Positions 34,677-61,729 of a stretch of 64,000 nt of DNA are shown one piece after another. Position 1 is the first letter of the stretch; each line of letters opens with the position of its first letter. Position numbers and translations under genes: made by a program. Source of the stretch: a virus; UHGV virus genome UHGV-1370141, one strand, 5' to 3'. The notes below the pieces were generated by a model, which was given only the letters and a program-made list of their open reading frames with translations, was not told the DNA's origin and made no database searches.

Positions 34677-34689
34677 TACATACGGGGGT

Positions 34690-34710
34690 GGGAAACCACC
34701 CCCATCTTAA
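34690..34710 (+). other. GC stem-loop (gggggtgg / ccaccccc, loop gaaa) between the 2377-aa gene and the next gene; no T-run
   Basis: 8-bp perfect stem. Confidence 0.35.
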
Positions 34711-37528: not shown

Positions 37529-37560
37529 ACCTACCTCCTTTCGGAGGTAGGTACTTTTAT
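37529..37560. terminator. bidirectional intrinsic terminator (stem acctacctcc / ggaggtaggt, loop tttcg)
   Basis: Same stem sequence as terminator at 13825..13851; flanking A- and T-runs. Confidence 0.65.
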
Positions 37561-38419: not shown

Positions 38420-38454
38420 AAGAATAAAGATTAGGGGTGCTACATAAGCACCCC
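38420..38454 (-). terminator. intrinsic terminator (stem ggggtgct / agcacccc, U-run on minus strand)
   Basis: 8-bp stem directly downstream of small ORF 38463..38606. Confidence 0.5.
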
Positions 38455-42278: not shown

Positions 42279-42299
42279 GGTAATTCTCCTTTAGGGTAA

Positions 42300-42336
42300 A
42301 AAATAAAAATACCCTACTCCCAGACAGGAGTAGGGT
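42300..42336 (-). terminator. intrinsic terminator (stem accctactcc / ggagtagggt, loop cagaca, U-run on minus strand)
   Basis: 10-bp perfect stem downstream of 42342..43001; identical stem reused at 61133..61158 and near 61750. Confidence 0.6.
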
Positions 42337-42341
42337 AGGTG

Positions 42342-43832: not shown

Positions 43833-45107
43833 TTAGATTGCAAAGTAGTCTTCCACGATTTCATCGGTAGACTGATAACTTACACTACCTGCCGCTAAAA
43901 CGTAGTTACGTTTTTCGGTGGTCATCAGCGCTTGTATCGCGTTAGCGCCTGCGTAAGTATAAAGTTTCAGTTCAGTGGTTTCGGGAGTAACGTTTTTCGT
44001 TTTATCCCATTTGGCATCCAGTGCTTTAAACAACGCTAACATTCGTGTCCCGTACGTACTAAAGCTCGTGCCGGTTTCCACACGCAAGTTAGCCATGATG
44101 TTTTGAATCACGGTTTCCGCAATCTGTTTGCCCTGACCTTCCTGAAGTTTGCCCAGGTAATACTCTGTTGAGTCCAAGTTGCCGGTAGCAGCAGCTTGAA
44201 TCATCAACTCCCCGTAAAGCGCCTCTTTTGCTTGATCGTCACTGATAGCCTGAATCATCGGGTCGATTTTTGCAGGCAATCCGTAACTGTTAAGTTTCGT
44301 AGACAGACCGTAGATCAACGCAGACGACGTGTTAATGTCTAACGCTGAAAAACTGTCACTGCCTTTGAAACTGTTAATCAAGTTGTCGATGGCTAAGAAA
44401 TCGTCAAGGTCTTTATAGCTGTCAAACGTGTGTTGTACGTCATCAATAACTGAGGTTATCTGGTAACGCATACTGTTGACTTCAGACATAAAGTTGTTGA
44501 CTTCATGACTGATTTCTGAAGGAAGCTTAGCCAGTTGACCTGCGATATTCAGCGTTCCTTCGAGACGCTTCTTCACGGAGGAGAAGTCAGTACCGATTCC
44601 TGACAGAAAAGAATCACTCAGCGACGAAAGGCTGTCCCAACCTTTGCCCAGTAAACTTCCTGAGTCACCGGGTGACAGATACCCTAGTGCTTTAAGCCCT
44701 TCCTCATTAACCTTTTTGAAAGGTTCTGAAACATCACGCTTCTGCGGATCGAGAACAGGTAGTGTCTCTTTAGTGTTAGAAGCAAACCCAGGAACTTTTT
44801 GTCCTGGGGAAACACCGGAGGTGGAGCTGCCTGCTGTTTTGGTACCCCCTACGCTGGCAATGTCACTACCACCGAACAGGTTACCGATTTTTGAGGTCAG
44901 TTCACTTCCACCGCTGATGAGTTTGTTAAAGGTTTCACCAGCACGATCGGAAAGCTGACTGACTTTATCTACGGTATTCTGAATGCCACGTTCGGCGTTC
45001 TCTACCGTAGATTGTACTCGGTTAACCGCATTCTTCGCGGTATTAACCGAGTTGTCGATAGCCGATTGACCTTTGTTAATCTGGCCGGTTATCTGATCGA
45101 GTTTCAT
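43833..45107 (-). CDS. hypothetical protein (424 aa), Ser/Gly-rich with predicted coiled-coil N-terminus; possibly structural
   Basis: ORF; low-complexity S/G-rich segments. Confidence 0.55.
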   Translation of the reverse strand: MKLDQITGQINKGQSAIDNSVNTAKNAVNRVQSTVENAERGIQNTVDKVSQLSDRAGETFNKLISGGSELTSKIGNLFGGSDIASVGGTKTAGSSTSGVSPGQKVPGFASNTKETLPVLDPQKRDVSEPFKKVNEEGLKALGYLSPGDSGSLLGKGWDSLSSLSDSFLSGIGTDFSSVKKRLEGTLNIAGQLAKLPSEISHEVNNFMSEVNSMRYQITSVIDDVQHTFDSYKDLDDFLAIDNLINSFKGSDSFSALDINTSSALIYGLSTKLNSYGLPAKIDPMIQAISDDQAKEALYGELMIQAAATGNLDSTEYYLGKLQEGQGKQIAETVIQNIMANLRVETGTSFSTYGTRMLALFKALDAKWDKTKNVTPETTELKLYTYAGANAIQALMTTEKRNYVLAAGSVSYQSTDEIVEDYFAI

Positions 45108-45919
45108 TCTGTACTCCGAAATTGATAAGCCTCGAGGTCAACCGTGTGAACGACTTCGTAAATCTTGTTGTCGTTTTTGCGTTTTAACGTCAACAGAATG
45201 TCGAATTTCTTCACATCAATCGCCTTGAGTATCCTCATAAACCATTTCCAAGACAGCTTCTTTTTCAGTCGCATGTTGTGCTGCATATTGTGCCGCATGT
45301 CGTTGCGTTTAGAAGCGATAGGAAGACAGTTCTCTGGATTATTAACATAGTTCGTTGAAAGTCGATGCCACCAATCCGAAGTCATTTTGATATTCGCAAA
45401 GATTGTCCACAGGAGTCTCGAAAGGGGGTGTTCCATCGTCTTTGCTGTCCCCGCACAATCTCGGAAGAAACGATTTAATTCCGTACTGGCACTGGCCGTC
45501 GGTTTCTCGTTACAGTCTTCAAAATCGTAGCGGATAAGATCGTCACGCACTCGTGTGGTGACTTCAGAAATGGTTTTTGTCTGGAAACGTCCACGGTAAG
45601 TCGTTATACAGATTCTTAACGATTCTACTCCGGTAATCACTAACCCTTCCGTGAAACCTCGCCACGTAAGGTCAACTGGTAAGTCACGGTTGTTACCTGA
45701 GGTAAGTTTCGTTGAGATGCGTTGTACTCGATCTTCGAGAACGGCCTTCGAACGTGTGCGGAAATCAGGGGACAGGATGTGTCTTGCAACTGCAAGCTTA
45801 TAATCTTTAGGTTCCCACCCAATCTGAGTTTTATATTCCCAGTAAAGTTTTTGCAACGGTTTACCCGCACGTTCTTCTTCGTCTCGTTGCAGTTTTGCTT
45901 TTGCTTCGTTATCCATCAC
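45104..45919 (-). CDS. hypothetical protein (271 aa)
   Basis: ORF with 4-nt overlap to downstream gene. Confidence 0.5.
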   Translation of the reverse strand: MMDNEAKAKLQRDEEERAGKPLQKLYWEYKTQIGWEPKDYKLAVARHILSPDFRTRSKAVLEDRVQRISTKLTSGNNRDLPVDLTWRGFTEGLVITGVESLRICITTYRGRFQTKTISEVTTRVRDDLIRYDFEDCNEKPTASASTELNRFFRDCAGTAKTMEHPLSRLLWTIFANIKMTSDWWHRLSTNYVNNPENCLPIASKRNDMRHNMQHNMRLKKKLSWKWFMRILKAIDVKKFDILLTLKRKNDNKIYEVVHTVDLEAYQFRSTE

Positions 45920-45949
45920 TTCACCTTGTTACAAGGGGTTAACTGATTA

Positions 45950-46498
45950 TTAAACAGGTCGGTTTAAAAGGTAGTGTTCGATGAGTACCTCCATTTCACG
46001 AAACAAATGTGCACAGTGATTTACCAATGCCCGATCTTCATCGGTCTTGGGCTTTAAGAAAATATCTTCGTAAGGTTCGATAAGCTCGAGTAACTGCGTT
46101 AGCTTATAATAGGCAACCGCCGGATTGGACGTCCCAAAATAAGTGTCTAACCAGCGGTTTTCTGATGAGTCTTTTTGTTTACTTAACGACTCTGGCAATG
46201 ATAACCACTCGATAGAGGTTCCATTAATCGTGCGTTGGTATTCGTTGATATAAAAAGCAAGACGTTGGTAAAGAATATCGAGATTAGCGATACGTAACTC
46301 GAGATTACCACGTAAGCTGGGGTGGTAGGGTTCGGTATCTACGTTTATAGGCAACGTAAGCAACCGTAAGCCGCTAAACGTTCTCACGTAGGGGTTATGG
46401 ATGTTCTTATGAAACTCCTGCCTTAGAGACTCTCTGAGAGCCTGTAAACGCTTTTGCTGTAGACGTTTCTTAAAACGTGTTATTAATCCTGTAAACAT
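45950..46498 (-). CDS. hypothetical protein (182 aa)
   Basis: ATG with GGAG SD; AT-rich motif 29 nt upstream. Confidence 0.55.
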   Translation of the reverse strand: MFTGLITRFKKRLQQKRLQALRESLRQEFHKNIHNPYVRTFSGLRLLTLPINVDTEPYHPSLRGNLELRIANLDILYQRLAFYINEYQRTINGTSIEWLSLPESLSKQKDSSENRWLDTYFGTSNPAVAYYKLTQLLELIEPYEDIFLKPKTDEDRALVNHCAHLFREMEVLIEHYLLNRPV

Positions 46499-46526
46499 AA
46501 TTCACTCCGAAAGAATGTCTCACGTA

Positions 46527-46539
46527 AATAATATCTGTC
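46527..46539 (-). promoter_or_regulatory. conserved AT-rich motif (plus-strand AATAATATCTGTC), candidate promoter in divergent region
   Basis: 29 nt upstream of minus gene start 46498; about 32 nt upstream of plus gene start 46571. Confidence 0.3.
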
Positions 46540-46570
46540 TGACTTCTTTTTGAAAATGAGGTGGTTTTAA

Positions 46571-47035
46571 ATGGCTGAAGAAGAAGTGAAATACCAGGCG
46601 TTAGATGGTGAAGTAGACGACGAAGAATCGCTTCTCCGCCAAACGCAACAAGCCCGTGTCAGAATTGTCAATCTAATCTTAGACGATCCTAATGCTCACA
46701 AAGACTTAAAGACCGTGGATCGTATCGGGACGTTATTAAACGACCTAGATAAGCAGATCATTTCTAAACGTCGTGTTGCCGCTGCCCAGAAAAACAGTGA
46801 AGCGAACCAAGACTTGGCTAACGCACTGAATACAATTCTGATGCAACGCGGTAACGTGAAAATAAAACGTCACGATGAAGAACCTGATGAAAATAATGGT
46901 TACCAACCCACCCTTCCAGACATTCCTAACGTAGAAATCTCGGAAGGGGAGTTGGCTCCGGTTGGCGAACAAATTGACGTGAAGTCCATTATGACTGCGG
47001 CGTTTGCGCGTCCTTCTTCGGACGAGCCAGACTAA
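46571..47035 (+). CDS. hypothetical acidic protein (154 aa)
   Basis: ATG with GAGGTGG SD; 3' end overlaps convergent gene by 47 nt. Confidence 0.5.
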   Translation: MAEEEVKYQALDGEVDDEESLLRQTQQARVRIVNLILDDPNAHKDLKTVDRIGTLLNDLDKQIISKRRVAAAQKNSEANQDLANALNTILMQRGNVKIKRHDEEPDENNGYQPTLPDIPNVEISEGELAPVGEQIDVKSIMTAAFARPSSDEPD

Positions 47036-47711
47036 ATAGCGCAGAATCACGTGGGTCGACACCGACCCACTCTGCCATAAACCGGATGTGTTCCTTGAAC
47101 GGATTCACACCATCGCGTTTAAGCTGCTCTACCGTCTCTTTTGTAAGTTCCGGCGTTAGCAGGGCAGGGTGCGTAATGGTAAAGCTAGGGATAGGCTTTT
47201 TCAGATGTTTCGCATTGAGTTCAATCCAAGCGAACCAATCGTACATTATCCAACAATCCCAAGCTGTCGCTAAACGACCCGGCGTAAGTTCCGAATGCGG
47301 CCACGACACTAACTCAACCTGCACCATATCGTAATAGATACGGAACATCTGCAAGAACGTTTGCATTTCTTGGTCAGTAAGATCAGTATACGGCCAGGTG
47401 TTAATTGTCAGCGTCGGTTTTTCGATAGGCGAATGCATCTCGATTTCGAGTAACATACATTCGAACTCGTTCTTCATCGTCAACAACAGTTCGGTGGGTT
47501 CTGCATTCATCAACGCGCGTTTATCGCGTTTCTGATATTCCTCTTTCCAATTCTCAAACCCCAAGACAGTCGCCCATTCCTCCGTAAAACGACGACGATA
47601 AACGTCGTAATCCATAATTTCCAATCTTTCAGGTTTGATGGCTTTGACCCAACCGATTCGGGTGTCAAACAACGCATCGATATCAATCAAAAAACGTCGA
47701 GAAAATCTCAT
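46989..47711 (-). CDS. hypothetical protein (240 aa)
   Basis: ORF. Confidence 0.5.
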   Translation of the reverse strand: MRFSRRFLIDIDALFDTRIGWVKAIKPERLEIMDYDVYRRRFTEEWATVLGFENWKEEYQKRDKRALMNAEPTELLLTMKNEFECMLLEIEMHSPIEKPTLTINTWPYTDLTDQEMQTFLQMFRIYYDMVQVELVSWPHSELTPGRLATAWDCWIMYDWFAWIELNAKHLKKPIPSFTITHPALLTPELTKETVEQLKRDGVNPFKEHIRFMAEWVGVDPRDSALFSLARPKKDAQTPQS

Positions 47712-48376
47712 GACGGATGGCCTATGTTGTTACCAATGTGCATCGCTTTCAGATACGCAGACCAGGTACGTGTTGCTTTCGAACTGGTACGTTCTGCTCC
47801 CGGCAGGTCAATACGTCCCTTACCGGTTTGACGTAACGATTGATAGAACGCACGTTGTAAAGCTTCGTTACCCCCACGCGCCCACAGAAACTCTTTCAGT
47901 GTCCAGTCGTGACCATCGGAGTACATGATGTACGCTTCTGGGAAAGATACACCAGATGCTTTAGAAGGACCAACAACTTGACCGGAGAGTTTATCACGAA
48001 CTTTGTCGTTCTTCGCTACTGCCATTTTCTTTTCTTGCATCTGCGTTTGACGACGCGCAGGCAAGCGCAATACCAGATGTGGGTAGCGGGTACGATGGAA
48101 AACACCCGTTTTCGGCTCAGTTAACCACAATCGCTGTTCCAGGTTCAAACCTAAAACACGACATAGCTTAACGTTTCGCATGTGGTCGATTTTAACTTTA
48201 CTGCCGACCGGGTTGTAAATCGGTAAGCCTTCACGAAGACGATTAAACTGTTCGTCCGTCATTCGAGCAAAGGCTTTCTTTGCTGCCTCTGCGTTAATCC
48301 CAGAGGGGTCAACCAGGCTTAAGATTTGTAAGGCGTAAGCTTCTGCTTTTTTACGCCGCGCTGGATCGAGTTTCAT
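47708..48376 (-). CDS. hypothetical protein (222 aa)
   Basis: ORF. Confidence 0.5.
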   Translation of the reverse strand: MKLDPARRKKAEAYALQILSLVDPSGINAEAAKKAFARMTDEQFNRLREGLPIYNPVGSKVKIDHMRNVKLCRVLGLNLEQRLWLTEPKTGVFHRTRYPHLVLRLPARRQTQMQEKKMAVAKNDKVRDKLSGQVVGPSKASGVSFPEAYIMYSDGHDWTLKEFLWARGGNEALQRAFYQSLRQTGKGRIDLPGAERTSSKATRTWSAYLKAMHIGNNIGHPS

Positions 48377-48650
48377 TTTCTACCGCCTTACGCAAGTTGG
48401 AAAGTGTCCCTGCTTCGAGGGTTTCAATCCAATAACTGATGTCGTCGGTGTTTTCAGGTACGTCGAATTTCACCGGCGGGTAACCGTAGTGTTCGAGTAA
48501 CTTGGAATAATATTCACCGACCTTTAAACAAAAAGATTCACGATCGGGAAAGAAAGTAGCGAAAGTCTCACGAAATGCCGCTGCTGTTTCCAGACTGACG
48601 CTGGCTAAACCTTCGCTTAAGCGCTCCACAATCTCCGTTTGATAACGCAT
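48351..48650 (-). CDS. hypothetical protein (99 aa)
   Basis: ATG with AAGGAG SD immediately after a hairpin. Confidence 0.5.
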   Translation of the reverse strand: MRYQTEIVERLSEGLASVSLETAAAFRETFATFFPDRESFCLKVGEYYSKLLEHYGYPPVKFDVPENTDDISYWIETLEAGTLSNLRKAVENETRSSAA

Positions 48651-48665
48651 AACGACTCCTTAGCT

Positions 48666-48705
48666 AGGGTAGGGGATTACCCTACCCTAACGCTTTTATT
48701 TCTTT
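48666..48705 (+). other. stem-loop (agggtaggg / ccctaccct, loop gatta) with T-run only on the plus strand, inside a minus-strand gene string
   Basis: 9-bp perfect stem; oriented as a terminator for antisense (plus-strand) transcription. Confidence 0.4.
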
Positions 48706-50192
48706 TTGGTGAGGAACTTCGGTTCCAGGCCGTCCACGGCCATACCCAGAATCGTACGGGCAGTTAACGTGCGTTTACCACCTTTCGTTTCTTGGTCTTT
48801 AAACATCCAGTATTCTACGGTGTTCTCCAGAATCTCATTCCAATCCCATTTCTCATCAATGAGTTTGTAGATTTCTTCCATCGTGAGGTGGTATTTAACC
48901 TCTAAACGATGGTAGTTGTTCTGCATGTACGCAATCGCGGCCGTGATTTCTAATGCCCGACGCAGTTTCGGGTTATCGTCGATCATGTCGCGAATCGTCG
49001 TACGCTGGAATTTAACACCAGGCAGAATCTGGAGTTCTTTAATGGAACCACCGCTACCGCTGGATGTAAATCCAAATTCGGATTTTTTCAGAGTGTCACT
49101 CAGGTAATGCCACAGGCTCAGGTGATACAGTAGACCCATCTCTTGCGAGAAGATCATCTGGAACTTCACGCCCGTGTGACCGCCTTTAGCACGGTACTGC
49201 GTAAAGGTGATAACTTTCAGGTCGTTAACCGACGCGTTCATGGCTTTTGAACGTGCGGTTGGGTAAAGTTCTTCGTTAACACCGGTCTGGGCGTTATAAC
49301 TCTGGTCTTTTTTCAGCTCGCCTGATTTTGTCGCAACAATAAACGAGTTAGTCAAGAAACTTAATTGACGACGAGGAATCCCTGCGAATTTGAGATCGTC
49401 GTTCGCATCGTCCAGCAGTTTCGCGTTTGCTTTCTGTCCTTGACGACCGCCCGCCATCGCCTTACCGGAGTCATCGGCCATCTGTGCAACAAAGCCCATG
49501 TAGAAACCACCACGGGCAAACGCAGACGGCCAACGGCTCATCATGTTCGATTTCTGTAAGGCGTCGTGGGCGTTGAGGATGTTCTGATCGGAATCACCGA
49601 TATCCGTTTTAGCGTGCTTGTCTTCCAGAGAAGACGAGTGCCACTCCGACAGGGAGTCGATAGAATACAGCCACGGGTCAAGGATTTCTTTTTGCTTACG
49701 ACGAACCGGGTCAAGGAACGGCGTTACACGCGTTTTACCAGACATATACTGCTTGAAGCGTTTTTCCACTTCATCACGAATATAGTCACTGTAATATTGT
49801 TCCCCTGGCATCACGTCAGAACCAACGAGGTTATAACGACCTTCGTGAATAAGTTCCAGTACCGAAGTTCCATCGTCAATACCGTTGGCGTGCATGGCAG
49901 AAATATAACCGGTCTCTAAGCGATCGAGGGCAGCAGACACTTCGGTATCGTATTTCGAACCCCACTCCGCTTTATAGCGTTGCAGGATTTGGAAGATACA
50001 GAAATCCAACAGTGTGGATTTGAAGGTGTTACCACGACCCGCGAAACCCATGATGTGGGCAAAACCACCGTTAAGGTAGTATAAACCATCTTCGCCTCTT
50101 TCGTAGTTGCCTAAGGCGTGGTCCATGATGGTATAAACGTTAAAACGAGGACGAATTACTTCACCGATAACTTGCTTAGTTGGGCCTGCCAT
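48696..50192 (-). CDS. possible RecA/UvsX-like ATPase (498 aa), degenerate P-loop
   Basis: GFAGRGNTFKSTLL resembles the UvsX-type Walker A (GPSKSFKS-like); otherwise unassigned. Confidence 0.3.
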   Translation of the reverse strand: MAGPTKQVIGEVIRPRFNVYTIMDHALGNYERGEDGLYYLNGGFAHIMGFAGRGNTFKSTLLDFCIFQILQRYKAEWGSKYDTEVSAALDRLETGYISAMHANGIDDGTSVLELIHEGRYNLVGSDVMPGEQYYSDYIRDEVEKRFKQYMSGKTRVTPFLDPVRRKQKEILDPWLYSIDSLSEWHSSSLEDKHAKTDIGDSDQNILNAHDALQKSNMMSRWPSAFARGGFYMGFVAQMADDSGKAMAGGRQGQKANAKLLDDANDDLKFAGIPRRQLSFLTNSFIVATKSGELKKDQSYNAQTGVNEELYPTARSKAMNASVNDLKVITFTQYRAKGGHTGVKFQMIFSQEMGLLYHLSLWHYLSDTLKKSEFGFTSSGSGGSIKELQILPGVKFQRTTIRDMIDDNPKLRRALEITAAIAYMQNNYHRLEVKYHLTMEEIYKLIDEKWDWNEILENTVEYWMFKDQETKGGKRTLTARTILGMAVDGLEPKFLTKKK

Positions 50193-50207
50193 TTAGCGCT
50201 CCAATAA

Positions 50208-50507
50208 TTAACGATTCTTGGTCGGAAGAAGAAGACGGCGTTTGTGCCAGAATTCAAAGTAGGTCTCTACCCACTCGGTGACTTCTTCCGATTTTTCAGG
50301 ATAGGGGTTCTCAATAGACTCGAAACGACGTTTGTTGCGCTCGTCGATTTCTAATTCCATCACGCGCTTACCGTTAGGTAAAGAGGTCACGCTAAGAATC
50401 TTACCTACTTGAATAGGCTTACCTTCTTTGTCTTTTTTCACCGGGGTAAGATAGATTTCCGGTTCCAGACGAGGCGTGGTGTTTCGAGTCAGTAATTTGA
50501 TTTTCAT
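50208..50507 (-). CDS. hypothetical protein (99 aa)
   Basis: ORF. Confidence 0.45.
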   Translation of the reverse strand: MKIKLLTRNTTPRLEPEIYLTPVKKDKEGKPIQVGKILSVTSLPNGKRVMELEIDERNKRRFESIENPYPEKSEEVTEWVETYFEFWHKRRLLLPTKNR

Positions 50508-50604
50508 CGAGCTTTACCTTTATGAGATAATCTCGGTCATAAGTTCAGGATGAACTGTAAAAAGACTTTACTATGTAACCCTGACTTATAATCCGAGGTT
50601 TTAA

Positions 50605-51360
50605 ATGAACGTAAATCCACTTGCAGCGTTAACTAGCTTTGCCGCTAAAGCGTCTGCAATCTTACCCAAAGGGTTCAGTGGCCCTCAACAAGAGATTGCA
50701 TTAACCACTTACGACGACATGTCAGACGTTTCCAAGTGGATGCAACAGGAAAAATTCTTACACTTTGCAGGCATGTTGGTTATTGTACCGCCAGGCTTCA
50801 ATACCTACGTAATGGATCACATTAACCGCTTAGAATCGGTGTGGAGTTCATTACAGAAGATCTACGACGGTGTCCTTTTACCTGTTGAGTTGCAACTTTC
50901 CGCCCTTACACATGATGTGGGCGTACTGTCATTACCTATCGGTTTCCGTTATAAAAACGTTAACATTCCGTTACGTAACGTGAATCCGAAAGACCTGGTT
51001 AACCAGTTGGCTAAGTCTTACACCAACAACGTTATTGACCAGCGTCCGATTGAGAAAACGTATCACAGTGCTACGGAGATCGATATTGCGTTTAACCGTG
51101 CAAAAGCACTGAACGTTGAAATCACGAAGAAACTTCGTACGAACATCGATAAATCCATCGAGTCCATCAAAGCCTCTGCAACGATTCTGTCTGAACAAAA
51201 CATTCATCCTAACGTGGCAAAAGAACTGACAGCGATGTTAGACTTTGCATCCGATTGGGTTGAACTGTTTGGTTTGTTCATGAAACAGGTGAACGAATTG
51301 ATTGAATGTCTGAACGTGACGGCTGAACGCCTGAAAGCGCTGAAGGCAAACAAAAAATAA
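50605..51360 (+). CDS. hypothetical protein (251 aa)
   Basis: ATG with GAGG SD; terminator downstream. Confidence 0.55.
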   Translation: MNVNPLAALTSFAAKASAILPKGFSGPQQEIALTTYDDMSDVSKWMQQEKFLHFAGMLVIVPPGFNTYVMDHINRLESVWSSLQKIYDGVLLPVELQLSALTHDVGVLSLPIGFRYKNVNIPLRNVNPKDLVNQLAKSYTNNVIDQRPIEKTYHSATEIDIAFNRAKALNVEITKKLRTNIDKSIESIKASATILSEQNIHPNVAKELTAMLDFASDWVELFGLFMKQVNELIECLNVTAERLKALKANKK

Positions 51361-51372
51361 AAAGTAAAAGCT

Positions 51373-51410
51373 ACCCCTAGACCACAAGGTCTAGGGGTAA
51401 TCTTTATTTT
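51373..51410. terminator. bidirectional intrinsic terminator (stem acccctagacc / ggtctaggggt, loop acaa)
   Basis: 11-bp perfect stem with flanking A- and T-runs between convergent genes. Confidence 0.65.
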
Positions 51411-51414
51411 CACG

Positions 51415-52299
51415 CTAAAAACCAGATATAAAGGTGGGCGCAATCCATCGCCACTCCTGCCAGCGTGGTCCTGTCATTGGCCCACACCAGACCCGTTTCC
51501 AATGTGCCCTGCGTATGTGCGCTGCGCGATGAGGCGTTAAACAGATTCTCCTGCCTTCCCTGCGTTGTTTTTCTAAGTCTTCGCGTTGTACTGGACTTAC
51601 GTCAACAACGACAGGTTCTCTCCGTGGGAGGATTTCTGTATCAGGTACGTAACGTGTCGTTCTACCACGGTATTCCCGTCTCTCGCGTTCCGATTTCTTC
51701 ACCCGCGAGGAAAGATATAAACCGATATGTACCTCATCCAGAAGTTCCTCGTCCTTTGACTCGTTAGCAAAGTAAGGCTCTAAACTAACAAAGTCATCTG
51801 CCTTTCTGTTGAACCGATAAATCTTGGTTGTCCAACAGTGCCGCTGATTTATCTCCACCCATCGTAAAACGAACAATACTTCTTCACCTTCGAATTTACG
51901 ACGACCGATAAAGAGCGTAGCAGGAAGTTCGTTAATCTTGACAGTCACGGAAAAGGTGAATGAAGGGATGGCTTCAATCCACGCGTACGGAATATCCGTT
52001 AAACGTTCTGTGTCTGCAAGTAATCCCATCAGCTCTTTATCAGAGATAATTTCAATACCTGCGTATTGCCAACCCAAACCTAACGACTGACGAATAGAAT
52101 ACGGCACCTGTTTGGTGGTGCCGAACTCACGGTACGTTGGGTCGTTAACGGGCAGAAAGGTTACGGGAAGTTGTCTCTTGTGTTCCCTGACAAACGTTAG
52201 AAAACGATCTTCTTTCAGACCAAACAAGTCTTTGTGTGCAGTCTCTATAGCTTCACTAATACGTCGAAGCGTGTCTCCATAAATTCTGCGTCTTAACAT
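51415..52299 (-). CDS. hypothetical protein, member of tandem paralog pair (294 aa from ATG at 52299; track ORF extends to 52422)
   Basis: ATG with AGGAG SD 7 nt upstream; C-terminal motif AAHIRRAHWKRVWCGP...WIAPTF shared with 52310..53242. Confidence 0.55.
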   Translation of the reverse strand: MLRRRIYGDTLRRISEAIETAHKDLFGLKEDRFLTFVREHKRQLPVTFLPVNDPTYREFGTTKQVPYSIRQSLGLGWQYAGIEIISDKELMGLLADTERLTDIPYAWIEAIPSFTFSVTVKINELPATLFIGRRKFEGEEVLFVLRWVEINQRHCWTTKIYRFNRKADDFVSLEPYFANESKDEELLDEVHIGLYLSSRVKKSERERREYRGRTTRYVPDTEILPRREPVVVDVSPVQREDLEKQRREGRRICLTPHRAAHIRRAHWKRVWCGPMTGPRWQEWRWIAPTFISGF

Positions 52300-52309
52300 T
52301 ATAATTCTC

Positions 52310-53242
52310 CTAGTCTTGCGTGTGGGGTACGTAGCCTCGGACAAATGTCGGTGGAATCCAGCAAAGTTTTCTTTTTCTTTCACCGTTTCTTGGGCCAACC
52401 CAGTATCTACGCCAGTGTGCACGACGTATATGTGCAGCTTTGGCGTGTTTGATACCCTGCATGGCTTTCAAGTCGGTGTTAAATCCTTTTAGATATTTTA
52501 CTTGTCCTGGTGTGATATCAACCTTAACATCACGTTCTCGCGGTTTAACGTCGTAACTAATACTACCGTTCTTTTTGATTTCCCTGAACTTAATATCATT
52601 AAAAGACTCCCTGTAATTAGGCGGGATTAGCGTGCACAGAAATATCATCGAAGTGGCGGCTTTGGCCAGAGATAACCATAACATCTTCTCTTCTTCGGTC
52701 TGTACGCCAGTTGTATAATCAATTTCAACAAGCCCGTTTCCTACACTACGAAGCTCTAACGAACAAGTGGCAATTGTGGTAACTCCTTCTGTTAACCCGT
52801 AATCAGTATTTGTAGCGATTATAATAAACCTTTTCTTCCCATTTTTTCGATAGCCGAGAAAGAAAGTCTCATCCTCTTTACCTACGTCGATTGCCACAGT
52901 CCATGCGGGTATAAAGTCCAACCATTCTTCAGGGAATTTACTGGGCATCTCAGTCTCGAAAACAAGTTCTCTAAGTGCTTGGTTGGATATTAAGGAAACC
53001 CCGCCATATAGCCACCCGATTGCCAACGTTTGTGCGTGAAGGGAACGTGGATCTTTGAGACCTAACTCAGTGTCGTAGGGTATAAAGGAATTGGTTAAAT
53101 GGTTACGATTCTTTTTTATCCATTTCGAGACAGGATTTTCTTTTGTTTGGTTTTCTTCCATGACATTTTCTAGATGCTGACTCCCCATTTGTCTAAGACA
53201 GTCTTTAATACCTTTTACTTTTTTACTTTTGTACAAATACAT
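52310..53242 (-). CDS. hypothetical protein, member of tandem paralog pair (310 aa)
   Basis: ATG with AGGAG SD; C-terminal AAHIRRAHWRRYWVGP...WIPPTF and internal GWLYGGVSLIS blocks shared with 51415..52299. Confidence 0.55.
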   Translation of the reverse strand: MYLYKSKKVKGIKDCLRQMGSQHLENVMEENQTKENPVSKWIKKNRNHLTNSFIPYDTELGLKDPRSLHAQTLAIGWLYGGVSLISNQALRELVFETEMPSKFPEEWLDFIPAWTVAIDVGKEDETFFLGYRKNGKKRFIIIATNTDYGLTEGVTTIATCSLELRSVGNGLVEIDYTTGVQTEEEKMLWLSLAKAATSMIFLCTLIPPNYRESFNDIKFREIKKNGSISYDVKPRERDVKVDITPGQVKYLKGFNTDLKAMQGIKHAKAAHIRRAHWRRYWVGPRNGERKRKLCWIPPTFVRGYVPHTQD

Positions 53243-53260
53243 GGTATATGCTCCTAAAAT

Positions 53261-53295
53261 GGTTAAAATAAAGCAACCCTAGCCGAAGCTAGGGT
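53261..53295 (-). terminator. intrinsic terminator (stem accctagc / gctagggt, loop cgaa, U-run on minus strand)
   Basis: 8-bp stem downstream of 53301..53789. Confidence 0.5.
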
Positions 53296-53300
53296 GTATG

Positions 53301-53789
53301 TTAGTCGATCTTGACGTAATTTGGGTAATTAGCTTTCAACCACTCCCACAGGTGTAATGCGAGCATACCTTGGTCGTAGCTAATAATATCCACAATACCG
53401 TGTGAGTGTGCTTCATTACCCCAAATTTGACTATAGAAACGACGCCACTCACCTTCTGCATATGGTGGTACAATTGCTGGGATAAAACCGTTATGGTATT
53501 CGTTAATTAGTGATTGTAAAGTTTCAATACGGATTCCGTATAACCGTCTATCGATGAACGATTTTGTGATCCCACCAAAGAAACCAACAAAGAAATCATC
53601 CAGACTCGTTATAAGTCGGGCTCTGTAATTATTTTCGATGTAGTCGGCGGCAACGCCAGCCATCCACGGAGTATCGACGACCATTGGCGCGAGTTTATTT
53701 CTGATCGTGGCATGTACACGGTCGGTATGGTTGAGGAATTCATGAATAATGTCGGAATTTTTCAAAGCGATAATTTGATTTAAATTCAT
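53301..53789 (-). CDS. hypothetical protein (162 aa)
   Basis: ORF. Confidence 0.5.
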   Translation of the reverse strand: MNLNQIIALKNSDIIHEFLNHTDRVHATIRNKLAPMVVDTPWMAGVAADYIENNYRARLITSLDDFFVGFFGGITKSFIDRRLYGIRIETLQSLINEYHNGFIPAIVPPYAEGEWRRFYSQIWGNEAHSHGIVDIISYDQGMLALHLWEWLKANYPNYVKID

Positions 53790-53806
53790 GTTTTAATCTC
53801 CTTAAG

Positions 53807-54355
53807 TTAAACGGTGCTTGTCTTAGCGGGTTGAAGTTTTGATGATAAATAAATAATCTCGGAACTACACACCCTTTTTACTAATGCCAAATTTTCAATA
53901 AAGATATCTCGAATGCGAGACGTGGTTTCATTAGTAAGAATATCGCTCCAGCATACAGTATCGACTATGTTGGTTTCAGCATTCTGTTGCTGTATAACAC
54001 CAACGTAAATCGTTTCGAAATCGTCTGGGGAATGGTTTTGTAAATAGTGTGCTGCGTCGACGAACGCCTTTTCCAGTATTGATTCTACCGTAGTGTCTGG
54101 GTCGGTTACACGAACCAGGTAGGGTCGCTCTATCACTGCGTGAATCCGCCTTTCTAACACGTCTACCAGAAAATCCACCATCGCTTTAGCATCTAAGATT
54201 ACCACGGTTTCCCCGTTGTTCTCTTTTGTTAGCTTTCTCTCGTACACCGCTATCGCGTCGTGCAGTTCTAACGTCACTTTATTTCGCATTTCGGTAAGTA
54301 TTTTATTTAGCCTGTCTCGTGACGAGCTCAGAGAGAAATCAATAAGTAATTTCAT
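53807..54355 (-). CDS. hypothetical protein (182 aa)
   Basis: ORF. Confidence 0.5.
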   Translation of the reverse strand: MKLLIDFSLSSSRDRLNKILTEMRNKVTLELHDAIAVYERKLTKENNGETVVILDAKAMVDFLVDVLERRIHAVIERPYLVRVTDPDTTVESILEKAFVDAAHYLQNHSPDDFETIYVGVIQQQNAETNIVDTVCWSDILTNETTSRIRDIFIENLALVKRVCSSEIIYLSSKLQPAKTSTV

Positions 54356-54356
54356 G

Positions 54357-55094
54357 TTAATAATCCTGATAAATGACGTCAGCCCGGTCTTTACGTAACT
54401 GGCAGTATGTCACATCCGCACCGTTAGGGATTCGCACACCGGTGTCTTCAAGATAGATAACACCAGTCTGATTACAGAAATAAAAAGACCACAAATACGG
54501 ATCGCCATGACACCCATTTTCGTAATGATTGAACGGCCAATAACCACGATGTAATTCATCAAAATCATCGCGCTCGATACCGTAAGCAATCATTTCTTTT
54601 TCCCACAACTTACATTCAGCGTCATAAGTCGAATACCAGAAACCAACGAGATTCTTTGTTCGTTTGACGTTCATTAAGTCGTTATAAATGGGAAAGAGCG
54701 CTTTATTGTAATTTTCTAACATGTTCGAGGAAAGTAGAAAATTCACGTAGTATTCTAGCCATTGATAAACGGCCTCCCAGACATCTTCAGAGGAGAAATG
54801 TTCGAATACGGCGTCATCACAATCGTAGTTATCGAAGATCGCTGAGAGATCTATTATGACGTCACGAAGGTCAAAGTTTCGGTTGGTGTTGACAGCGTCA
54901 ATAACCTCAGAGACGAGGTGGGTAAAGACATTTGTACAGGCTGATTGTGCGGTGTAAAAGAATTCTCCTTGGACAGTTGACCATTTTGGGTCTTTCAGGC
55001 GTTCATTGAAGTATTGTGGCCAAATTTTATAAAAGAGTCCCTCGAACAACGAGGGATTAATACGTTGTAATTGAGGGACATAAACTTTCAACAT
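54357..55094 (-). CDS. hypothetical protein (245 aa)
   Basis: ATG with GGAG SD; AT-rich motif 30 nt upstream. Confidence 0.55.
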   Translation of the reverse strand: MLKVYVPQLQRINPSLFEGLFYKIWPQYFNERLKDPKWSTVQGEFFYTAQSACTNVFTHLVSEVIDAVNTNRNFDLRDVIIDLSAIFDNYDCDDAVFEHFSSEDVWEAVYQWLEYYVNFLLSSNMLENYNKALFPIYNDLMNVKRTKNLVGFWYSTYDAECKLWEKEMIAYGIERDDFDELHRGYWPFNHYENGCHGDPYLWSFYFCNQTGVIYLEDTGVRIPNGADVTYCQLRKDRADVIYQDY

Positions 55095-55123
55095 GGTGAC
55101 TAACTCCGAGGGTTCTACACCTG

Positions 55124-55136
55124 AATAATATCTATC
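55124..55136 (-). promoter_or_regulatory. conserved AT-rich motif (plus-strand AATAATATCTATC), candidate promoter 30 nt upstream of minus gene start 55094
   Basis: Third exact copy of the ATAATATCT core. Confidence 0.3.
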
Positions 55137-55803
55137 TAAGAAAGTTTTTAGCGAAATAGGGATCGATGTGAAACGCTTTCACGAGAGAATCATAGCCGGA
55201 GTGAATCTGATCGGAGTTGAGCAGGAAACGGTCTAGATCGTGAGGCAATATCCAGGCGTCACCTTGTTTGAAAATAGTGTGACCTACAGTTTCTGGAGAA
55301 AATCGAATTTCTTCCGGGAAGGGATACGTTTGCTTCAAATCGAGGTCGGTGGGTTTTAAGGTAACTAAACGAACGGGTCGTTTACTGGCCACCTCCTTAA
55401 CGAATTGGTTACGATCAAACCAGATAATCTTTTCAGGGTAGCTTTCCAGCTCACTCCAGACCTTGTTAATCACCAGATTAAAGTTCTGTTGCAGTTCCCC
55501 GGATTGGTTAGCGTAACCTAAGCACTCTTCTACCAAAGCTGGATTACCGTAAGTGTTAGTAATAACCTGTGCAATCACACGTTGTGGGAAACAATCTTTC
55601 GGTATATCACAACCTGCATTGTACAATGCAATGATTTCCCACAATGAGCGTAAGGCAAGTTCAAGTGACACTTCCCCGAGTGTATAGTGGTCGTCAGAAT
55701 AGGGGGCTTTAAAGCCCCACTGCTGACGCGCAATTGCTGAAAAGCGTATCTGGATATAACTCGGTGCCATCGATAACGCTTGACTAAAAACAATCAGCAT
55801 CAA
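55132..55803 (-). CDS. hypothetical protein (223 aa)
   Basis: ORF, 4-nt overlap with upstream gene. Confidence 0.5.
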   Translation of the reverse strand: MMLIVFSQALSMAPSYIQIRFSAIARQQWGFKAPYSDDHYTLGEVSLELALRSLWEIIALYNAGCDIPKDCFPQRVIAQVITNTYGNPALVEECLGYANQSGELQQNFNLVINKVWSELESYPEKIIWFDRNQFVKEVASKRPVRLVTLKPTDLDLKQTYPFPEEIRFSPETVGHTIFKQGDAWILPHDLDRFLLNSDQIHSGYDSLVKAFHIDPYFAKNFLR

Positions 55804-57311
55804 AGTTCCTTATCGGTCAATATTCGTTTGTTTGAATAATAACCACACCATAGACCATGATACTTCTCACCGATATACACTAACGCGTATTCAATATACT
55901 GACGTTCTGGACGACGTACGGCAATGTAGAATCGCCCGTTTGGTTCTTTGATACGGTTGATTTCCGTACGCGTCGGTATGTCGATAGCACGCGTAAGAAT
56001 AGTTTTAACGTCAACCTTCCCGTTAGGGATTTTAATGGAAACGTCAAACCCTTTATCCACGTTTCGGTAAAAGTCTTTGGTGGGTTTACCTTTTTCGTCA
56101 TAAAGCAAATCGGTAATATCATTTAAGACAACGTTCGATTTGCCTTCCAAACAGTCACGCAGCCACTCTGCCAGTTCATCACGAATGGTTACGCAGCGGT
56201 ATGACAATAACGCGGGACGCAGAATACGACTGATAGACAAGTCTTCGTACATCCACAGGTTTTTGTCTTCGCTAAAGTGCATTTTGTCAACCGGGATACC
56301 GTTAGCCGCAGCTTCCGCAAACTTCTTACGTTTTACGAACAGGTTGAACACAACAGCGATAGGGTCAAACTGACGCAAACGTGGTACGCCCTCCCAGGCT
56401 TTAGCAGCGTGGGCGTTAACCAAATCATAAACGTTCGTCCACGGCTCACGTGTAAACATCACACAAAACTGCGCATCAGGGATGTATTTTCCGACGAAGA
56501 CAATATCGTCCTTCTGTTTTGCGTGGTTACCCCCGAACATGTAATAGAGATTTTCACCGTTTACTTTAACTGTAGGGTGTTGCTCATTTACCATCGGGTA
56601 GCAGAACTTGGTTACGCAAATATCAGGAAACGCGGCAACGTTAACGCCTTCACTGACGATTTCTTCCTGCTGTTCTTCCGGGATTTCGTCTGCTGACCAG
56701 TACGCCTGATAATCTAAACCTTCTCCGTGCGCAGAGATGGATGATCCTTTTCGTGCCAGCCCGTCAGCTCGTTCGTTACCGTAGTGACCAGAGTGTCCTT
56801 TGATTTTAAGAACACGAATCCCTTTTCCTTCTTTCTTCAGACGTTTCTTAATTTCCCACATCCGTTGAACCAGCTCAAGGTTCGCGATAGGGGTTCCATC
56901 AGCCCGTCGCCAGTCCCGCTTAGCCCAACCGTCAATCCAATCGTTAAACGTATTCACAACGTAAGACGCGTCGATATAGATAACGTAGTTTTTTGCAACG
57001 AACGGTGCTTTTTCGAAAACGGTTAAAAAAGCAACAATCTCTGCAACATCGGAGTGGTGGTGTTTCGGTACCGGAATAACACAGTCTACGAACTCAACAG
57101 AGTCCGGTAGCGCAGGAAGTTTTTCCTCTTTGTTAATCTGGCGATAACCAGAGGTCGTAATCCCTTCGGGAATGGTAGGGTGGCGATAAACGCCACCGTC
57201 AACAATCTCTTCCTTGTTAAACAGGTAGCCGTGAATCCCACCGCCTGTTCCCATCGGTGAGGTTAAATGGCTACCGTCGGTATAAAGTACAGCAACATCA
57301 ACGTTCTTCAT
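55800..57311 (-). CDS. ribonuclease H domain protein (N-terminal RNase HI-like domain plus about 300-aa C-terminal domain of unknown function), 503 aa
   Basis: RNase HI motifs LYTDGS, EIVAF, YIDASY, KIKGHSGHYGNERADGLAR. Confidence 0.8.
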   Translation of the reverse strand: MKNVDVAVLYTDGSHLTSPMGTGGGIHGYLFNKEEIVDGGVYRHPTIPEGITTSGYRQINKEEKLPALPDSVEFVDCVIPVPKHHHSDVAEIVAFLTVFEKAPFVAKNYVIYIDASYVVNTFNDWIDGWAKRDWRRADGTPIANLELVQRMWEIKKRLKKEGKGIRVLKIKGHSGHYGNERADGLARKGSSISAHGEGLDYQAYWSADEIPEEQQEEIVSEGVNVAAFPDICVTKFCYPMVNEQHPTVKVNGENLYYMFGGNHAKQKDDIVFVGKYIPDAQFCVMFTREPWTNVYDLVNAHAAKAWEGVPRLRQFDPIAVVFNLFVKRKKFAEAAANGIPVDKMHFSEDKNLWMYEDLSISRILRPALLSYRCVTIRDELAEWLRDCLEGKSNVVLNDITDLLYDEKGKPTKDFYRNVDKGFDVSIKIPNGKVDVKTILTRAIDIPTRTEINRIKEPNGRFYIAVRRPERQYIEYALVYIGEKYHGLWCGYYSNKRILTDKEL

Positions 57312-57313
57312 TC

Positions 57314-58048
57314 TTAATCCCTGGTTAACTGATCACGAATCTGTGGTGGAATATACTCACCGGTTTTCAGTTCTTCGTGACAGGCTTTAGCACGTTCGTA
57401 CCCATACTCGCGAGTAATCAGTGCAAGGTGATAAATACGTGCGGTGGTATAAGCTTCTTTCGCGGCATCCCACAAAGCATGGTGTTCAAATGCCGGTTTA
57501 CCCCGCGTCCAGTAAACTTGCTCAACGGTCAAGTCAGGCTCAAAACCAAACGCCAGCGCTAAACGTTCTGCGGTGCGGTCACTGTCTAACGCGCTGAACT
57601 TACGGAATTTACCTGGAGGGACGTCACATTGTGCGAACGCGTTCATGAAAATCGGCGAATCGAAATCCGGACCACGCATGGTGATAACAAAATTGTGTTT
57701 ACCGGTGATTTCGTCTAACCACTTACGCATCGCCCACAGCGCTTCCGGCATAGGAGTTGTACCGCCCCATGCTTCCGTGTAGGCTTCACGAGACGGTGCG
57801 TATTCAGGTTCCCCTTTACCTTCCCACCATCCTACGGTCTGTGGGTCTTCGTGGAACACAGCTTTTGCTTTAGGGTCGTTAGGATCAATACGCATATACG
57901 ACGACCCCACCATTTTTAAAGTCGGTACGTCAAAGGCAACTAAGCCCGTGGTTAACAGATACGCATCAGGACGCAGTGATTTAGTTTCTGCGTCGGCACC
58001 GATTACCAACGTCGGTAAGGTGGGTTGAATCGTTTTCGGGTATGTCAT
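57314..58048 (-). CDS. DEDDh-type 3'-5' exonuclease (DnaQ-like), 244 aa
   Basis: Exo I-like GADAET, C-terminal HHALWDA (H-x4-D) motif. Confidence 0.55.
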   Translation of the reverse strand: MTYPKTIQPTLPTLVIGADAETKSLRPDAYLLTTGLVAFDVPTLKMVGSSYMRIDPNDPKAKAVFHEDPQTVGWWEGKGEPEYAPSREAYTEAWGGTTPMPEALWAMRKWLDEITGKHNFVITMRGPDFDSPIFMNAFAQCDVPPGKFRKFSALDSDRTAERLALAFGFEPDLTVEQVYWTRGKPAFEHHALWDAAKEAYTTARIYHLALITREYGYERAKACHEELKTGEYIPPQIRDQLTRD

Positions 58049-58084
58049 GTTAAGCTCCTTTCTCTATACATTAGAAGGGGGTTA

Positions 58085-58130
58085 AACGTTAAAAAGAAAA
58101 TACCTCCTGTACCCCGAAGGATACAGGAGG
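58085..58130 (-). terminator. intrinsic terminator (stem cctcctgta / tacaggagg, U-run on minus strand)
   Basis: 9-bp stem downstream of 58136..58591. Confidence 0.5.
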
Positions 58131-58135
58131 CGTTG

Positions 58136-58591
58136 TCAGTTCAAACACATTGTCAGATACTGATCGTAGGCGTCTAATAAAGCTTGCCGGTCAGAGCGAT
58201 AATTCCACAACAACGAATTCAGTTTACGTGATAAATCCCGACTGATTTCTTGTGGCGTTAACGCTTTGTCGTCTAATAACATCTTTTCTGGAACGGAATG
58301 TAATTTAGGAATTTCAAATCGTTCGCAGATAGGTGCTAACATCGGTGGATTCCACCCGCGTTTGACTGCTTGTTGATTTAAGTTTCGTGTGTAAAGATAA
58401 ACGTAATAAGCGTATGTATTCACATCCGCAACATATTCCCGCATCGCGTCTTTATCAATTTTCCAATTTAGCATGATAGGCGGCGCTGGCGGAGGTTGTA
58501 ACGCAGTATAGGATGGCCGTTTACCGGGTTCTCCATAGCCATTACTCACCAAACCCACGCACAAAATCATGATGAATAACAGCGATTTCAT
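58136..58591 (-). CDS. secreted, Pro-rich protein with N-terminal signal peptide (151 aa); possible spanin-like partner of the upstream membrane protein
   Basis: N-terminal MKSLLFIMILCVGLVSNGYG hydrophobic signal; Pro-rich mature N-terminus. Confidence 0.45.
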   Translation of the reverse strand: MKSLLFIMILCVGLVSNGYGEPGKRPSYTALQPPPAPPIMLNWKIDKDAMREYVADVNTYAYYVYLYTRNLNQQAVKRGWNPPMLAPICERFEIPKLHSVPEKMLLDDKALTPQEISRDLSRKLNSLLWNYRSDRQALLDAYDQYLTMCLN

Positions 58592-58594
58592 CAG

Positions 58595-59098
58595 TTACTC
58601 CTTAGGTGAGGATAACGTCTTTATGATCTCCTGACGGAAACTGTTAGCGTTTTGACTACCAACAGGTCGCGCCGAAGCTTCTTTGCGTTGTTCTGGTGTT
58701 GAAGCTGGGCTAACAGGAGTTTCTGGTTTCTTAGGTGTTAAATCTTTGGTAGAGTTGTCTTCTTTTACCGTGCTGTACCCACTTTCATATGGCGGTTTCT
58801 GGCCGAGGCAAATAAAGAGCTTGTCGTATAATCTACCATTATCATCTTTCAGTTTGTCACGATCTTGCTTCATCTCTTGGTAAGATTGCGACATGTATTG
58901 ATCATGAGATTGTACGGTAACGAGCTTGTGAAACTGCACTACGTACGCATAGGAGACGAAAGCCGAGTAGGATAACAAGACCGTGATGATTAAAGTCATT
59001 ATCTTGTTTGCTCTTGATACGTTTTCTCCTTCTCCTGGTTTAAATGCTTCCATCAACATCTGAATGAAGAACGGAAGCACTTTAAGAAATGAACCCAT
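58595..59098 (-). CDS. membrane protein with single TM helix, coiled-coil and Pro-rich C-terminus (167 aa); possible i-spanin-like
   Basis: TM IMTLIITVLLSYSAFVSYAYVV; ATG with GAGGTG SD. Confidence 0.45.
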   Translation of the reverse strand: MGSFLKVLPFFIQMLMEAFKPGEGENVSRANKIMTLIITVLLSYSAFVSYAYVVQFHKLVTVQSHDQYMSQSYQEMKQDRDKLKDDNGRLYDKLFICLGQKPPYESGYSTVKEDNSTKDLTPKKPETPVSPASTPEQRKEASARPVGSQNANSFRQEIIKTLSSPKE

Positions 59099-59123
59099 TG
59101 CTCACCTCGGAGTATTTTTAATT

Positions 59124-60497: not shown

Positions 60498-60500
60498 TGA

Positions 60501-61124: not shown

Positions 61125-61132
61125 AAGAAATT

Positions 61133-61717: not shown

Positions 61718-61729
61718 TTTAATACTCCT

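Follow-up and report, generated by a model that had tools for sequence, protein, structure and literature searches.

Probable Terminator Hairpins With a Shared Stem Vocabulary in a phiKZ-Related Jumbo Phage

The intergenic regions of a 64,000-nucleotide stretch of the virus genome UHGV-1370141 (hereafter the window) are punctuated by G+C-rich hairpins whose stems recur, in some cases verbatim, from one locus to another. Most probably, these hairpins serve a phiKZ-related jumbo phage as intrinsic-type terminators and 3'-end hairpins that share a stem vocabulary; the apparent reuse of stems would reflect the limited set of words used in the terminators of this phage group, a set that appears to be maintained by selection. 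Terminators with conserved stems are a known kind, published for phages phiKZ and 201phi2-1; the version carried by the lineage of Salmonella phage SPN3US and the Erwinia phages is new.

A Narrow Set of Stem Words

A scan for perfect inverted repeats, folding of every intergenic gap and consensus scans, all run over the 64 kb, located at least 18 hairpins, which start at 683, 3295, 5698, 13825, 14443, 16705, 21691, 34684, 37529, 38434, 42310, 48665, 51372, 53276, 58102, 61132, 61750 and 63279. An original prediction, made from the letters of the window, had named six of them; all six are present where it placed them, with stems a little longer than it gave. The stem TACCCTACTCC / GGAGTAGGGTA, 11 bp in length, occurs at both 42310..42337 and 61132..61159, the 9-bp stem CCCTACTCC / GGAGTAGGG at 61750..61771, TACCTACCTCC (11 bp) at 13825..13851, ACCTACCTCC (10 bp) at 37529..37552, and TAGGGTAGGG / CCCTACCCTA (10 bp), in which the arm order is reversed and the G-rich arm comes first, at 48665..48689. 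Each stem-loop folds with -15 to -20 kcal/mol on both strands. Further members are those at 683, 3295, 5698 (ACCTCCTACCC), 14443, 16705, 34684, 38434, 51372, 53276, 58102 and 63279. The core proposed for the six, CCTAC(C/T)CC, fits just the three CCTACTCC hairpins, whereas its first part, CCTAC, is common to all of them. CCTACYCC has 6 matches in the window against 2.1 expected; all 6 CCTACTCC matches are arms of three hairpins and none lies elsewhere, while the shorter CCCTA is at chance level (70 against 70.3 expected).

Roughly every second stem follows one pattern: the 5' arm has no G and reaches the loop with CTCC or CCC, and the 3' arm opens with GGAG or GGG. The pattern is the same on either strand because the stems are perfect palindromes. 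With intragenic hairpins as the internal control, a G-free 5' arm is found in 24 of 51 intergenic and 1 of 23 intragenic hairpins of the window and the complete genome of Erwinia phage Asesino, with which the window is collinear in gene order; the window contributes 7 of its 16 hairpins. Anchored at the loop, the arms give the consensus C-C-Y-A-C-T-C-C, in which the final position is C in 24 of 24, and the consensus of the lineage can be written CCYACTCC / GGAGTRGG.

Sharing of this extent is beyond chance. In shuffles that preserve the composition of every one of 16 arms, P is ~3e-4 for four pairs with a common run of 8 nt or more and ~7e-4 for an 11-nt identity; this null is conservative because the odd composition of the arms itself belongs to the phenomenon. 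Under a position weight matrix built from Asesino, the 11/11 identity seen in the window has P = 0.0014, and four pairs identical over at least 9 nt appeared in 0 of 20000 draws. Both tests speak against independent random stem sequences, as the original prediction had held, and the composition-keeping shuffles reject the explanation of their identity by base composition and chance.

The same words recur in related phages. Asesino has ~45 terminator-like hairpins, ~17 of them with ACTC(C)-loop-(G)GAGT tops; its loops are most often UUCG (15 of 51 hairpins) and sometimes GNRA. The TACCCTACTCC stem is found at Asesino 117052, a site non-orthologous to 42310 and 61132, and CTACCTACTCC is present twice in that genome. 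In IMG/VR, CCTACTCC-N3-8-GGAGTAGG occurs at no fewer than 117 loci; among the matches listed, contigs of more than 200 kb account for 55 of 117, and several contigs of 220-255 kb hold 3-5 copies each, against a chance expectation of ~3e-4 copies per 240 kb. One candidate locus, L020, where two CCCTACTCC hairpins lie 550 bp apart, was set aside as an unrelated hairpin-rich region with neither A-runs nor T-runs.

Terminator Anatomy

The typical order of elements is an A-run, a stem of ~9-13 bp, a loop of 3-6 nt and YTTTTATTT, and the arrangement is often bidirectional. All five convergent junctions of the window hold a perfect palindrome between an A-run and a T-run, which is the form expected of a bidirectional intrinsic terminator. 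At tandem junctions with a hairpin, the T-run lies on the transcribed strand in most cases and the hairpins are unidirectional. In the 64 kb, TTTTATTT lies within 12 nt 3' of a hairpin in 11 of 14 copies, although just 0.34% of positions qualify; TTTATT follows 13 of 18 hairpins, and the composite pattern CTCC-loop-GGAG...TTTAT has 4 matches in the window against 0.04 expected. The lone non-Watson-Crick pair of unidirectional terminators is G.U on the U-run strand in seven instances and A.C in one, a bias that offers modest support for selection at the RNA level. The A-run followed by TACC at the stem base was also considered as a phiKZ-like middle promoter (AAanTTACc), an idea dropped because such promoters would point antisense at tandem junctions and into the converging genes at convergent ones.

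In the proposed mechanism, the RNA would fold into a G+C-rich hairpin of 9-13 bp, a U-run (typically YUUUUAUUU) would follow, and the polymerase would be released; at convergent junctions, the perfect palindrome with its A-run and T-run would act in both directions. The vocabulary from which the stems would be drawn consists of 5' arms without G that end in CTCC or CCC at the loop and 3' arms without C that start with GGAG or GGG.

The precedent comes from two jumbo phages. ONT-cappable-seq of phiKZ yielded 133 termination sites, and 61 mapped terminators share the motif BCCYCCCCHWWDGGGRRGGBYTTAT (Putzeys et al. 2024, PMC10914365). The same approach gave 132 termination sites in 201phi2-1, with a motif A (n=59) resembling that of phiKZ, and eight 201phi2-1 terminators caused strong termination in uninfected Pseudomonas chlororaphis (PMC11512511). 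The premise that hairpins sharing a stem should not be ordinary hairpin-plus-U terminators is contradicted by these eight, which also function in uninfected host cells; one of the candidates that the original prediction derived from it, a phage-specific termination signal, fares well, since most window hairpins have the full anatomy of intrinsic terminators and the architecture of the phiKZ and 201phi2-1 motifs. The phiKZ segment from 100 to 150 kb (NC_004629.1, 100001..150000), scanned here, has the same architecture, e.g., GCCCTCCC-TTCG-GGGAGGGC-tttatg, and also holds CCCTCTCC-TTCG-GGAGAGGG, an exact match to the Asesino hairpin orthologous to 42310.

In phiKZ, TTATG comes after many of the terminator hairpins; it contains TATG, the late-promoter consensus of the phiKZ non-virion polymerase, in which G is the transcription start (PMC4666361). 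The overlap of the two motifs suggests coupling of terminators to promoters in phiKZ.

Turnover at Orthologous Sites

At the Asesino sites orthologous to window hairpins, a hairpin is likewise present, and its stem is related to the window stem without being the same. The window stem TACCCTACTCC corresponds to CCCTCTCC-TTCG at the 42310 site and to CTACCTACTCC-TTCG at the 61132 site, TACCTACCTCC at 13825 to CCTCACTCC-CGTAAA, and TACCCCTAGACC at 51372 to GTACCCACTCC. The junction 3' of the tail-tube-like gene (the 13825 site) carries, in 20 of 21 lineages, a perfect hairpin of at least 8 bp accompanied by both an A-run and a T-run; the stems there are of 10 different sequences. These comparisons used loop-anchored lists, as MAFFT/RNAalifold put stems of different length out of register. 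Since pairing is kept while sequence turns over, the hairpins are old residents of their junctions and not recent insertions.

The genes at 61169..61717 (182 amino acids) and 61780..62712 (310 amino acids) are adjacent paralogues with 25% identity (E = 1e-8), and each has its own CCCTACTCC hairpin at its 3' end, at 61132 and 61750, respectively. Neither has an Asesino homologue, and together they make up a lineage-specific duplicated cassette (61169..62712). The two hairpins likely descend from an old duplication of a gene together with its terminator; that the stems are identical although the proteins have diverged far points to constraint on stem sequence.

Origin of the Vocabulary and Points Against It

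A G-free first arm may be favoured because it would stay free of wrong pairings with the RNA 5' of it until the second arm has been transcribed. By pairing with the preceding 40 nt, the native C-rich arm gains -0.64 kcal/mol, and a swapped, G-rich arm would gain -3.24 kcal/mol (p = 2e-4). This folding-order rationale is tentative and weak. Transitions that pass through G.U (C-G to U.G to U-A) would leave the 5' arm with pyrimidines and the 3' arm with purines, and the main words CCTACTCC and CCCACTCC differ by a single step of the C-G to U-A type; such transitions probably add to the sharing. The last C of the 5' arm would be invariant because a C-G pair closes UUCG and GNRA tetraloops.

Several observations weigh against reading the set as terminators with a conserved vocabulary. 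The G-rich arm comes first in six of the ~18 hairpins, and the literal phiKZ consensus has 0 matches in the window with up to three mismatches. The set is also functionally mixed, since the coding strand has no U-run at 5698, 48665 and 34684. The mapping of 3' ends covers phiKZ and 201phi2-1 and no SPN3US-like phage, and by analogy with those two phages 3' ends would form at the window hairpins as well. As to the folding-order rationale, the equilibrium probability of the hairpin is not better in the native arm order (0.82) than in the swapped one (0.84), and G-rich arms are the more promiscuous in their pairing whatever the genome, while bacterial terminators are not known to follow such a rule. 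Finally, verbatim identity exceeds what the position-independent clade consensus yields (P = 0.0014); the consensus alone is therefore not the whole story, and old duplication of genes with their terminators or selection for particular words also contributes.

Alternative Explanations

The excess of identity over consensus is also the point at which a second reading enters, namely that the stem sequence is read by a phage factor, such as the non-virion polymerase, a termination or antitermination factor or an RNA-binding protein, and that the hairpins are a phage-specific 3'-end signal or an mRNA tag rather than generic intrinsic terminators. In line with such a reader, the stem consensus is unusual for terminators yet common to phiKZ, 201phi2-1 and the window clade in lineage variants, and stems are identical between loci while loops and flanks drift. 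However, since 201phi2-1 terminators work strongly in uninfected cells, no phage factor would be needed for basal function, and many terminators of the same genomes have unrelated stems with the G-rich arm first. ChmC, an RNA-binding protein associated with the phage nucleus, was rejected as the stem reader: its eCLIP crosslinking peaks lie near start codons and show no motif (PMC11077065). Recognition by a phage factor is thus unlikely, and it may coexist with a terminator function. A more elaborate form, in which a phage-encoded factor reads the stem words sequence-specifically and has co-evolved with them across phiKZ-like lineages, seems doubtful; its candidate readers would be the non-virion RNA polymerase or an RNA-binding protein, with the 3' hairpin doubling as an mRNA identity tag. 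If it were true, the tag could serve regulated read-through, protection or handling at the phage nucleus, and a stem-reading factor would explain why unrelated loci converge on the same words of 9-11 nt.

Processes acting on DNA have been considered as well. Identical stems could be boundaries of gene cassettes, could offer microhomology for recombination by which accessory genes are shuffled among related phages, a role put forward for the promoter-stem-loop cassettes of T4-type phages, or could have been copied with duplicated genes. Genes or indels that lack an Asesino counterpart adjoin the hairpins at 42310, 61132, 61750, 63279 and 37529, the adjacent distant paralogues each carry a CCCTACTCC hairpin, and the same 11-mer stem stands at a non-orthologous site in Asesino. 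These five borders are compatible with cassette exchange at terminators, but they are also expected for any accessory gene that has its own terminator, and terminators should stand at the edges of accessory genes in any case; 13825 and other members lie between conserved syntenic genes, no homology past the stem points to recent transfer, and between paralogues of just 25% identity unselected stems would have diverged. Cassette boundaries are accordingly an improbable source of the shared words. Far less credible is a small mobile repeat of the miniature-transposon or REP type, which the original prediction had listed. Near-identical inverted repeats do stand at several intergenic sites, but what they share is limited to arms of 9-11 bp with different loops and flanks, the 8-mer CCTACTCC is confined to hairpins, terminal repeats and target duplications are lacking, and in Asesino and ~20 other lineages the orthologous junctions already have a hairpin with another stem. 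Its further suggestion of an RNA-processing site, with RNase III or another endonuclease separating cistrons, is very improbable too. It would suit 5698, 48665 and 34684, which lie between co-transcribed genes and have no coding-strand U-run, whereas most members have a U-run and stand at convergent gene ends. RNase III requires about two helical turns (~20 bp), and the window stems, at 8-13 bp (just 9-13 bp in the typical form), fall below the needed length.

The Hairpins of the Window

The terminator-like hairpin at 3295..3324 appears bidirectional: it lies between convergent genes and has a 13-bp stem TAGCCTGAGACCC, the loop CGGT and flanks made up of an A-run and, opposite to it, TTTATTTT, with orthologues bearing other stems in ~20 lineages. 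Predicted bidirectional terminators are also found at 13825..13851, between convergent genes (TACCTACCTCC-GTAAA-GGAGGTAGGTA, with A9 upstream and CTTTTTTATTTTT downstream), at 37529..37552 (ACCTACCTCC-TTTC-GGAGGTAGGT, preceded by a long A-run and followed by ACTTTTATTTATTT), at 51372..51399, between convergent genes (TACCCCTAGACC-ACAA-GGTCTAGGGGTA), and at 61132..61159, again between convergent genes, where the stem TACCCTACTCC is identical to that at 42310 while the loop (TTTTCG) and the flanks are different.

The remaining terminator-like hairpins are on the minus strand. At 683..702, CGGGTGGC-TTCG-GCCACCTG is followed by T9 and ATTT, 3' of the minus-strand gene 712..1869; at 14443..14466, TAAGGCGGT / ACCGCCTTA precedes T7, and the plus strand also has ACTTTTATTTT; at 38434..38454, GGGGTGCT-TATGT-AGCACCCC leads into TAATCTTTATTCTTTTTTT. 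The hairpin at 42310..42337 (TACCCTACTCC-TGTCTG-GGAGTAGGGTA, then TTTTTATTTTTT) separates tandem minus-strand genes, and the genes downstream of it have no Asesino homologue. Putative terminators follow the same plan at 53276..53295 (ACCCTAGC-UUCG-GCTAGGGT, then TGCTTTATTTT), at 58102..58131 (GCCTCCTGTATCC-TTCG-GGGTACAGGAGGT, then ATTTTCTTTT), where U.G wobble pairs form on the transcribed strand only, at 61750..61771 (CCCTACTCC-TCCG-GGAGTAGGG, then TTAATTCTTTTTT), 3' of gene 61780..62712, and at 63279..63302 (CCCCTAATCC-AATC-GGATTAGGGG, then TACTTTTATTTATT). The 13-bp minus-strand hairpin at 16705..16733, GGGTAGTCTATCC-ATT-GGATAGACTACCC followed by TACTTATTTTT, has its G-rich arm first.

Some of these gaps also show repeats next to the ribosome-binding site. 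YCCTAAAGGAG recurs just 5' of start codons in the gaps 42279..42341, 63246..63308, 16600..16741 and 62713..62765. Directly before the ribosome-binding site, the 42310 and 63279 gaps repeat the 7 nt with which the 5' arm of the hairpin begins (TACCCTA and CCCCTAA, respectively), and the 3' arm could therefore pair with either copy.

Three hairpins have no coding-strand U-run. The one at 5698..5723 (ACCTCCTACCC-TTGC-GGGTAGGAGGT) lies directly 5' of the Shine-Dalgarno sequence of the terminase gene, has a T-run on the plus strand only, opposite to both adjoining genes, and keeps its position across the clade; its stem pairs an anti-Shine-Dalgarno-like ACCUCC with GGAGGU, 2 nt 5' of the real UAGGAG. 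The hairpin at 48665..48689 (TAGGGTAGGG / CCCTACCCTA, G-rich arm first), between the uvsX-like gene and the next gene, has a 3' arm that overlaps into the Shine-Dalgarno sequence of the downstream gene and a position kept in distant relatives; its T-run is on the antisense (plus) strand only, so it is probably no sense-strand terminator. In both (window 5687..5733 and 48651..48695), the 3' arm directly adjoins the ribosome-binding site of the gene that follows, and in more distant lineages the hairpin stays at these sites while the T-run is lost. The third, at 34684..34703 on the plus strand (GGGGGTGG-GAAA-CCACCCCC), is intercistronic, between tandem plus-strand genes, and has no U-run. All three may act on the downstream cistron, by stabilising or tuning it, or may block transcription in the antisense direction.

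Loop Inversion and a Candidate Operator

Among 15 hairpins shared with a relative that is 94-99% identical, six have a loop that is the reverse complement of its counterpart while arms and flanks are unchanged: the window hairpins 37529, 42310, 48665, 61132, 61750 and 63279, compared with L123, L129 and L132 (IMGVR_UViG_3300014543_000002). Five inversions are exact (TTTTCG/CGAAAA, CGGA/TCCG, GATT/AATC, GATTA/TAATC and TTTC/GAAA), and the 42310 loop is inverted with one additional substitution. The 61132 loop is inverted in a 99% identical relative, the 37529 loop is GAAA or TTTC among close relatives, and the same loop flips are seen between other close relatives (L124/L125, L147/L148 and L133/L151). 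In the unidirectional terminator at 53276, the UUCG loop never flips and its orientation is the same in all four close relatives. Such flips would fit frequent template switching or recombination inside palindromes, a mechanism described for rRNA hairpins (PMC8794818).

The minus-strand hairpin at 21691..21711, between the RNA polymerase subunit gene 21718..25884 and a gene for a 97-amino-acid protein (21377..21670), is no terminator. It has no U-run; its top, GGG-UCGCU-CCC, is invariant, its lower stem covaries in 11 lineages with two-sided changes in 5 of 8 pairs, and 3' of it come an invariant ACUCCGGAGU and then the start codon. It looks like a protein-binding translational operator, a candidate regulator of the 97-amino-acid gene downstream.

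The Source Genome

The proteins of the window include RNA polymerase beta-like subunits, a tail-fibre-like protein of 2377 amino acids, a tail sheath, a terminase and a UvsX-like recombinase (PHROG matches). Related isolates were identified via protein search: the large polymerase subunit has 82% amino-acid identity to those of Erwinia phages Asesino, Stratton and phiEaH2 and 77% to that of Salmonella phage SPN3US. A megablast search with 6 kb around the 42310 hairpin against isolated phages gave no DNA-level match; IMG/VR holds uncultured relatives with ~94-99% identity to the window. Because relatives are found through the polymerase and no isolate matches at the DNA level, the window comes, on sequence grounds, from a new and uncultured member of the phiKZ-related jumbo phages, which transcribe with their own multisubunit polymerases. 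An Rfam scan of the window returned no family, and the window has no tRNA genes. Sigma-70-like promoter matches are depleted relative to shuffled sequence, with 14 against 22.2 in window 1..20000 and 20 against 29.6 in window 44001..64000, which is consistent with transcription that does not use the host polymerase.

Implications

The conserved-terminator phenomenon is extended to the SPN3US/Erwinia-phage branch, each lineage having its own stem words. This sharpens a question that stem swaps can test, namely why the stem sequence of terminators is constrained in these phages but not in their hosts. The combination of hairpin and TTTTATTT is usable to delimit transcription units in unannotated jumbo-phage genomes, and the predicted compact bidirectional terminators could be of use in engineering.

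Comparison With Known Systems

T4-type phages reportedly carry promoter-early stem-loop (PeSL) cassettes, an account ascribed to Arbiol, Comeau and Krisch in 2010. The likeness lies in repeated intergenic stem-loops of a large virulent phage that often edge variable accessory genes. About 8 of 17 window hairpins border genes with no Asesino homologue. PeSL cassettes, however, couple the stem-loop to a conserved early promoter and concentrate in hyperplastic regions, whereas no promoter component is definable in the window and many of its members lie between conserved core genes. T4 is also said to have intercistronic hairpins with C(UUCG)G and GNRA tetraloops, as Tuerk and colleagues are reported to have found in 1988; closure of the loop by a C-G pair is common to both and partly accounts for the invariant last C, but the likeness covers the closing pair only and not stem words of 8-11 nt. 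Bacterial REP/BIME and miniature inverted-repeat elements are repeated intergenic palindromes as well, whereas in the window nothing is conserved past the arms, there are no mobility signatures, and positions are orthologous across lineages.

A single stem word in many terminators is known from the DNA uptake sequences of Neisseria and Pasteurellaceae, which form inverted pairs there (Kingsford et al. 2007, PMC1852404). Owing to their second function, uptake sequences are over-represented genome-wide and also occur singly inside genes (PMC1852404), whereas CCTACTCC of the window is found inside hairpins only.

With phiKZ and 201phi2-1, the window shares a background of related jumbo phages with two multisubunit RNA polymerases and the build of the hairpins: a C-rich, G-poor 5' arm, a loop of ~4 nt that is often UUCG, a G-rich 3' arm and a U-run interrupted by A (TTAT). 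As in those phages, there are dozens of copies per genome, mostly intergenic, and some copies are bidirectional at convergent genes. The 3' ends have been mapped in phiKZ and 201phi2-1, while the window hairpins are known from sequence. The lineages differ in their words: the window stem is CCYACTCC, with TA interruptions, where phiKZ has CCYCCCC, and the window tail is TTTTATTT where phiKZ has TTATG.

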